Positions 35,420 to 36,468 of a stretch of DNA of 64,000 nucleotides are shown one piece after another. The DNA is taken from the sequence record PP434423.1; one strand, given 5' to 3'. Every line of letters begins with the position of its first letter. Within the stretch, counting starts at the first letter, position 1. The notes under the pieces were generated by a model. That model saw only the letters and a list, made by a program, of their open reading frames with translations, did not search any database and was not told the DNA's origin. Position numbers and translations under genes: made by a program. Source of the DNA: Escherichia phage 236Ecol005PP.

Positions 35420-36468
35420 TAAAAATCTCCCGAGTCAACTTGCCAGCATTCAACACCGATACGACGCCACATCTCAACGACTTGGTTACGGTCATCAATA
35501 GCTAATTTCACATCAAAATGCGGTGCAATGTGTTTCCAGAAAATTTCTTCTTTAACTACATCATCTTTACGGGTATCACCTTGTTCGCGTTGACATTGCA
35601 TAACTAATGGAACACCAGCAATGTCCTCAACCCATTTACGGGTCATACGATAATATTTCGTTGGGTCTTCTTCAGTTCCACTTTCACGACCACTTACTAC
35701 GATAATCTGATAACCCATATTGGCATACATCTTCGACAGTTCAACTACCATTGGGTTGATGACATCAGTATCACACTTCTCAAGGTCATAAGGACCGCGG
35801 CCGTCCATTTTTGCTAATGTGCCATCAACATCAAAAATAACTGCGTTTGGTTTACCAGGAGTCCCTTTGTATACCGGAAGACCGAGATACTCTCGCATGC
35901 TGACATCAGTATCACACTTCTCAAGGTCATAAGGACCGCGGCCGTCCATTTTTGCTAATGTGCCATCAACATCAAAAATAACTGCGTTTGGTTTACCAGG
36001 AGTCCCTTTGTATACCGGAAGACCGAGATACTCTCGCATGCTTTTATACATTGAGCGTAAAACATCAATCGGTACTGCTTTAGTTCCACGTTTTGAGTTA
36101 CGTTTAACTAGCTCAGTCCAAGGAACATCAAACACTTTATATTCAACTTTCCAGCCGTATTCTTTGGCAAAAGTTTCCCATGCTAGGCGACGTTCGGGAT
36201 TCAAGTTAGTGTCTGAAATAATTACTCCCTTGACAGAATCACCGCCATACAAAATACTTTTAGCTGTATCAAACTGCATACCAGTTACGATACCTTCTTT
36301 CTTTTTGGTATACTTGTACTCGTCACGTTCTTCATGACCCATGATGGATTGACGATAATCATCACGATTAATATTATAAAATCCAGGATTTTTAGCAATA
36401 AATTCACGAGTCCAAGTACTCTTACCAGAACCAGGACAGCCAATAGTCAAAATAATCTTTTTCATCAT
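35419..36468 (-). CDS. pseT: polynucleotide 5'-kinase/3'-phosphatase carrying an internal 47-codon tandem duplication
   Basis: 349-aa ORF; P-loop GCPGSGKST at N-terminus; HAD phosphatase motif FDVDGT present twice; T4 enzyme is 301 aa as recalled. Confidence 0.85.
35761..36042 (-). repeat. perfect direct tandem duplication, 2 x 141 bp, in frame within pseT
   Basis: Segment gacatcagtatcacacttctcaaggtcataaggaccgcggccgtccatttttgctaatgtgcc...ctctcgcatgct occurs twice back to back; protein segment [47 protein letters not shown] repeated (residues 143-189 and 190-236). Confidence 0.9.

Follow-up and report, generated by a model that had tools for sequence, protein, structure and literature searches.

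The pseT gene of Escherichia phage 236Ecol005PP, as written in the 64,000-nucleotide stretch of sequence record PP434423.1 analyzed here (the window), carries a perfect 141-bp tandem duplication, which is really present in the sequence and most likely does not exist in the phage itself. With a probability of about 0.87, the second 141-bp copy is an overlap of a de Bruijn-graph assembly that was left untrimmed and is absent from the phage genome. The polynucleotide kinase-phosphatase (Pnk) of the phage is most likely ordinary, with 301/302 amino acids (aa). The preliminary description of this DNA had offered two origins for the duplication, a very recent event or an assembly artifact. The second was favored by our results, since the repeat length equals the MEGAHIT k-mer and the junction is unique to the window, and the first was not.

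A string comparison showed that the two copies, window positions 35760–35900 (copy 1) and 35901–36041 (copy 2), are identical and lie head to tail. TRF reported one array in this region (35760–36042, period 141, 2.0 copies, 100% matches, 0 indels, score 566), which was the sole long array that it found in the window. No other exact direct repeat of at least 40 nt was present in the 64 kb, and the window contains no Ns or other anomalies. A 141-bp repeat of this kind is far beyond chance. Beyond the unit, the identity extends by 0 nt to the left and by 1 nt to the right (the t at 36042), and therefore the register 35761–36042, used in the preliminary description, is equally valid and equivalent to 35760–36041. 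The same description had called the duplication perfect and in frame, with 141 bp and 47 aa, and both TRF and the direct comparison confirmed this. The novel junction lies between positions 35900 and 35901, where GCATGC meets TGACATC; the longer string on its left side is CTCTCGCATGC and that on its right side is TGACATCAGTATC. The end points of the duplication share a microhomology of 1 nt (t), a match that chance could produce and that fits either origin. Two other in-gene tandem arrays were observed in the window, one at 4904–4965 (GAC/GAAGACGAC codon repeats, about 6 copies of 9 bp) and the other at 28815–28873 (24-bp unit, 2.5 copies); both are short and imperfect, unlike the 141-bp repeat.

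The repeat lies within an open reading frame (ORF) of 349 aa at 35419..36468 on the minus strand, identified by the ORF list, Pfam and PDB 1ltq; the ORF has 302 aa when one copy of the repeat is removed. Judging from its sequence, the product is predicted to be a T4-type bifunctional polynucleotide 5′-kinase/3′-phosphatase. Pfam domains HAD_PNKP (8.5e-70, residues 207–349) and AAA_33 (1.6e-22) were matched, and “polynucleotide kinase” is the annotation in all close phage records. The ORF is near-identical to T4 Pnk (PDB 1ltq, 301 aa; E = 1.6e-223), and the HMMER match came in two blocks, with query residues 2–189 aligned to T4 residues 1–188 and query residues 190–349 aligned to T4 residues 142–301. 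Therefore, T4 residues 142–188, including D165-V-D167-G-T, are present twice. The length of 302 aa (349 − 47) includes an extra N-terminal Met, which is annotated also in some relatives. Thus the window protein resembles T4 Pnkp (pseT, 1ltq) in its P-loop kinase and DxDxT phosphatase domains and in its gene neighborhood (cd ... pseT ... alc, rnlA, denA-like, nrdB, nrdA), and differs from it in that residues 142–188 (47 aa) are repeated as written, giving 349 aa. The earlier assignment of the gene as pseT/Pnk, its length of 349 aa against about 301 for T4 Pnk, and the placement of a duplicated DxDGT motif I at the kinase-phosphatase boundary were all in agreement with the Pfam result, the translation and the 1ltq alignment.

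In T4 Pnkp, residues 1–147 form the kinase domain and residues 148–301 form the DxDxT phosphatase domain, in which Asp165 is the nucleophile, Asp167 is the general acid-base, and Ser211, Lys258 and Asp278 complete the site (PMC3592404). The kinase P-loop of the window protein, GCPGSGKS (residues 10–17; 36418..36441, minus strand), was recognized in the translation by the GxxGxGKS definition (PMC3592404) and is untouched by the repeat, and the kinase domain matches 1ly1 as well as 1ltq. The duplicated segment runs from the last part of the kinase domain through the linker to the first phosphatase strand and loop with motif I. Read on the minus strand, copy 2 encodes the first, N-terminal copy of this segment, directly after the kinase domain, and copy 1 encodes T4 Pnk residues 142–188 for the second time, on the C-terminal side, and runs on into the remainder of the phosphatase domain. 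The first DVDGT motif of the protein (residues 166–170 of 349; 35959..35973, minus strand) was located by translation and by alignment to T4 D165/D167, and the second (residues 213–217 of 349; 35818..35832, minus strand) by translation and homologue alignment. It is the second DVDGT that is contiguous with the remaining HAD motifs, each of which is present once, and that corresponds to the invariant columns D212/D214/G215/T216 of the homologue alignment (348-aa numbering, from the second Met). The equivalents of Ser211, Lys258 and Asp278 each occur a single time in the 349-aa protein.

The occurrence of the duplication in relatives and in sequence collections was then examined. A 44-nt probe of the junction, designed as 22 + 22 nt so that megablast seeds only on junction-bearing records, found the junction in none of 50,697 phage records, 5,426 complete E. 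coli genomes and 72,556 plasmids. The junction gave no match as an exact 30-mer in IMG/VR or as an exact 24-mer in JGI metagenomes and GTDB genomes, and exact-protein look-ups of the 349-aa and 348-aa forms of Pnk found none on record. Flank-plus-unit strings were also used to look for a linear contig that begins and ends with the unit, and no match was obtained in IMG/VR (171-mer) or in JGI metagenomes (60-mer). Among the matches listed, all 40 phage records aligned to the 1301-bp query in two pieces over a span of 1160 bp, equal to 1301 − 141. At the protein level, the best 120 of 1354 Pnk homologues (E <= 1e-20) are 258–311 aa long; the family has a length of about 295–311 aa and a single motif I, from which the ORF as written departs and with which it agrees after one copy is removed (302 aa).

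A further comparison came from 10 contigs (NCBI, ENA and Logan) that encode an identical 100-aa upstream neighbor of pseT and matched at 96–98% identity. All of them encode a Pnk of 301/302 aa. When their DNA was aligned with the window, two blocks were obtained that overlap by 141–142 bp on the subject and are continuous in window coordinates; therefore each of these contigs has one copy and the window has two. In addition, the 141-bp unit is identical to the single copy in Escherichia phage vB_EcoM_G50 (G50), and the window minus one copy aligned to G50 across pseT without a gap over 4774 bp.

T4-type genomes are circularly permuted and terminally redundant, and therefore a short-read assembly of such a genome closes on itself. 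From the length of the repeat alone we infer that this sequence was assembled with MEGAHIT, or with another graph at k = 141; the contig would afterwards have been rotated or joined. A self-closed assembly would give a MEGAHIT contig whose first and last 141 bases coincide, and neighboring MEGAHIT contigs would likewise share one 141-base end. If the contig were then given a conventional start by rotation, closed as a circle, or attached head to tail to its neighbor with the overlap untrimmed, the two ends would meet and leave a perfect, spacerless two-copy tandem repeat of 141 bp at an arbitrary position of the genome, here in pseT. The true gene would then encode an ordinary T4-type Pnk of 301/302 aa with one DxDGT motif. 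All properties observed are expected under such an origin, including the junction homology of 1 nt, which is at the level of chance. That the duplication falls inside a gene is also expected, because the genome is densely coding. The window and the T4-convention record of G50 share one orientation (strand +), which is weakly consistent with a re-oriented genome.

Several published observations bear on this proposal. The default k-list of MEGAHIT is 21, 29, 39, 59, 79, 99, 119 and 141, with 141 as the largest; MEGAHIT contig ends share a sequence of length maxK, and “self_circular” contigs are recognized through such maxK end overlaps (COBRA, PMC10914622). In circular contigs named k141_, the two ends overlap by 141 bp, and an example contig of 499 bp became a 358-bp circle after the overlap was merged (bioRxiv 10.1101/2023.06.07.544120). 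A 141-bp insert that exactly matched the adjacent region and had no supporting read has been published as an artifact in a MEGAHIT contig (PMC11572364), and the pseT duplication has the same signature. For SPAdes, overlaps of 127 bp are a recognized artifact that is routinely removed from phage assemblies (PMC5923482); these are likewise artificial repeats of k-mer length at the ends of circle-assembling phage contigs, although the assembler is another one and k is 127 rather than 141. No relevant report of 141-bp terminal repeats in phage genomes emerged from a literature search. The pseT repeat therefore resembles a MEGAHIT k = 141 end overlap in its length of exactly 141 bp, its perfect identity, its two abutting copies and its arbitrary position, as well as in its absence from relatives and the collinearity of the single-copy version with G50. 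It differs in being internal, so that a later untrimmed rotation, wrap or join is needed.

An artifact unrelated to MEGAHIT, introduced by manual editing, scaffolding, polishing, or the building of the window or record, would make the value of 141 a coincidence. Such an origin would fit the perfect identity of the copies and the restriction of the repeat to this sequence, but it leaves the exact match to k = 141 unexplained, and the window is free of Ns or other anomalies, so we regard it as extremely improbable.

A genuine and very recent in-frame tandem duplication, arising by replication slippage or illegitimate recombination and probably retaining both activities, was also considered. Its product would be a kinase and a phosphatase joined by a linker longer by 47 residues, in which the spare DxDGT segment is without function. 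Tandem duplications have precedents in T4 genetics, and real in-frame ones can occur under selection in T4-type phages, as in the gp37 adhesin. The ORF remains open, and the kinase (1ly1, residues 1–181) and phosphatase (5uj0) structures were solved separately, which suggests that the linker between them is tolerant. Since the ORF is intact and both domains are predicted to be well folded, a real duplication would be viable, which counts against an artifact. However, the pseT ORF is open, with 47 additional residues, because 141 = 3 × 47; any 141-bp duplication is in frame, and the intact frame is therefore uninformative on the origin. In-frame status was for this reason rejected as evidence of a real duplication.

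Other observations also weigh against a genuine event. Its length, out of hundreds of possible lengths, equals the MEGAHIT k of 141, and we roughly estimate that a real duplication would coincide with an assembler parameter by chance in one of a few hundred cases. The duplication was in no other phage record, contig or protein searched, and the two copies are perfectly identical with a junction homology of 1 nt. Homologous recombination is very active in T4, and about 50 bp of homology suffices for it. A perfect repeat of 141 bp should accordingly collapse fast via T4 recombination unless it is selected, and no advantage is apparent. The duplications of gp37 adhesin domains offer a comparison, because in these too a protein segment of a T4-type phage is duplicated in frame and head to tail. 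They expand the host range, arise between short repeated motifs, are selected and have been verified experimentally. In contrast, the pseT repeat has a junction homology of 1 nt, is without evident selection or a second occurrence, and has a length equal to an assembler parameter. Taken together, we consider a genuine duplication unlikely, and an untrimmed assembly overlap remains the preferred explanation.

To illustrate what the protein would look like if the duplication were real, an AF2 model of the 349-aa Pnk was built on 50 homologues (mean pLDDT 83.6). In this model, a normal kinase domain ending in helix 133–146 is followed by residues 150–188 with pLDDT <50, so that the first DVDGT is placed in a disordered linker, and a normal HAD domain is formed, for which strand 207–212 (high pLDDT) and DxDGT are supplied by the second copy. 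Such folding would be in keeping with a genuine duplication. Part of the disorder predicted for the first copy is built into the model, because the homologues were placed on the second copy. The outcome of the model agrees with independent folding of the kinase and the phosphatase, whose structures were solved alone (1ly1 and 5uj0).

A stronger reading, in the direction of the preliminary description, is that the duplication is real and alters the enzyme. For example, a second motif-I loop could swap into the HAD core or compete for it, or tetramer geometry could change, and either could alter tRNA repair and counter-defense against anticodon nucleases. This idea draws on the presence of two DVDGT motifs, on the role of Pnk, which together with Rnl1 repairs PrrC-cleaved tRNA (PMC3592404), and on rnlA being nearby in the window (38199–39359), as in relatives. 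All points against a genuine duplication apply here as well. Moreover, S211, K258 and D278 are present once, and therefore at most one phosphatase site can form; two phosphatase active sites were rejected on the ground that motifs II–IV are single. The AF2 model gives the first copy no structured role, a result partly built in by the alignment of homologues to the second copy, and an insertion of this kind is conserved in no lineage among the best 120 of 1354 homologues. An altered enzyme thus appears very improbable. The suggestion of two candidate phosphatase active-site loops, with a possible effect on counter-defense, was not supported, given the single remaining catalytic residues and the linker position of the first motif in the model. 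If the duplication were real, its most likely phenotype would be a longer tether in an enzyme that is still bifunctional, rather than a pair of active-site loops.

The genomic background of pseT was also described. The window belongs to a Tequatrovirus of mosaic ancestry: the 1.3-kb pseT locus is 99.6% identical to vB_EcoM_G50, and over 24 kb (window 24000–48000) the best phage matches are 95–97% identical and fall into 6–10 pieces. For an Alt-like protein of 683 aa and a protein of 1289 aa, no exact match was on record. By these comparisons, the phage looks like a previously uncatalogued Tequatrovirus.

Some differences from relatives were observed. At about 34688–34751, between a 91-aa and a 78-aa ORF downstream of pseT, the window is without a 175-aa hypothetical ORF that is found in G50 and most relatives, a difference of about 518 bp; Logan contig SRR28117442_52 is also without this ORF. 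The nrdA gene (41855–45023, minus strand) is split by a homing-endonuclease ORF. Its N-terminal ORF (477 aa; 43590–45023, minus strand) carries the ATP-cone, RNR lgN and barrel positions 1–221, and its C-terminal ORF (329 aa; 41855–42844, minus strand) carries barrel positions 219–523. The ORF between these pieces (42834–43544, minus strand) has 236 aa and contains an I-HmuI NUMOD-like homing-endonuclease domain. nrdA is also annotated in two pieces in several relatives, and it is intact (754 aa) in the 10 contigs with the identical pseT neighbor. Between nrdB and nrdA, an ORF of 263 aa encodes a putative D12-class N6-adenine DNA methyltransferase (41020–41811, minus strand; PF02086, 1.2e-23). 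In related contigs this position is empty or occupied by a NUMOD-type ORF of 213–243 aa, and the methyltransferase ORF may represent a mobile cassette, the site being a known hotspot of homing endonucleases.

For the record itself, the stated genome length is probably 141 bp too high, and pseT needs a corrected annotation. More generally, perfect tandem repeats of 141 bp are diagnostic of MEGAHIT overlaps left untrimmed. As 141 can be divided by three, such overlaps yield intact but wrong proteins that are silently accepted by gene callers and catalogues. Scans for recent in-frame duplications should filter out repeats whose length matches a common assembler k-mer (141 or 127), and the SPAdes k-mer settings of 55, 77 and 99 give further repeat lengths to filter. 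The main value of the pseT duplication is as an annotation and quality-control flag, and as biology it probably does not matter. It is doubtful that a wild T4-like phage really encodes a Pnk with a 47-residue duplicated tether and a spare DxDGT segment. If it does, the allele would have arisen recently, would be unstable to recombination, and might alter the geometry of the tetramer or the efficiency of tRNA repair against anticodon nucleases; it would represent a modest curiosity, namely a natural allele that lengthens the linker of a well-studied RNA-repair enzyme.
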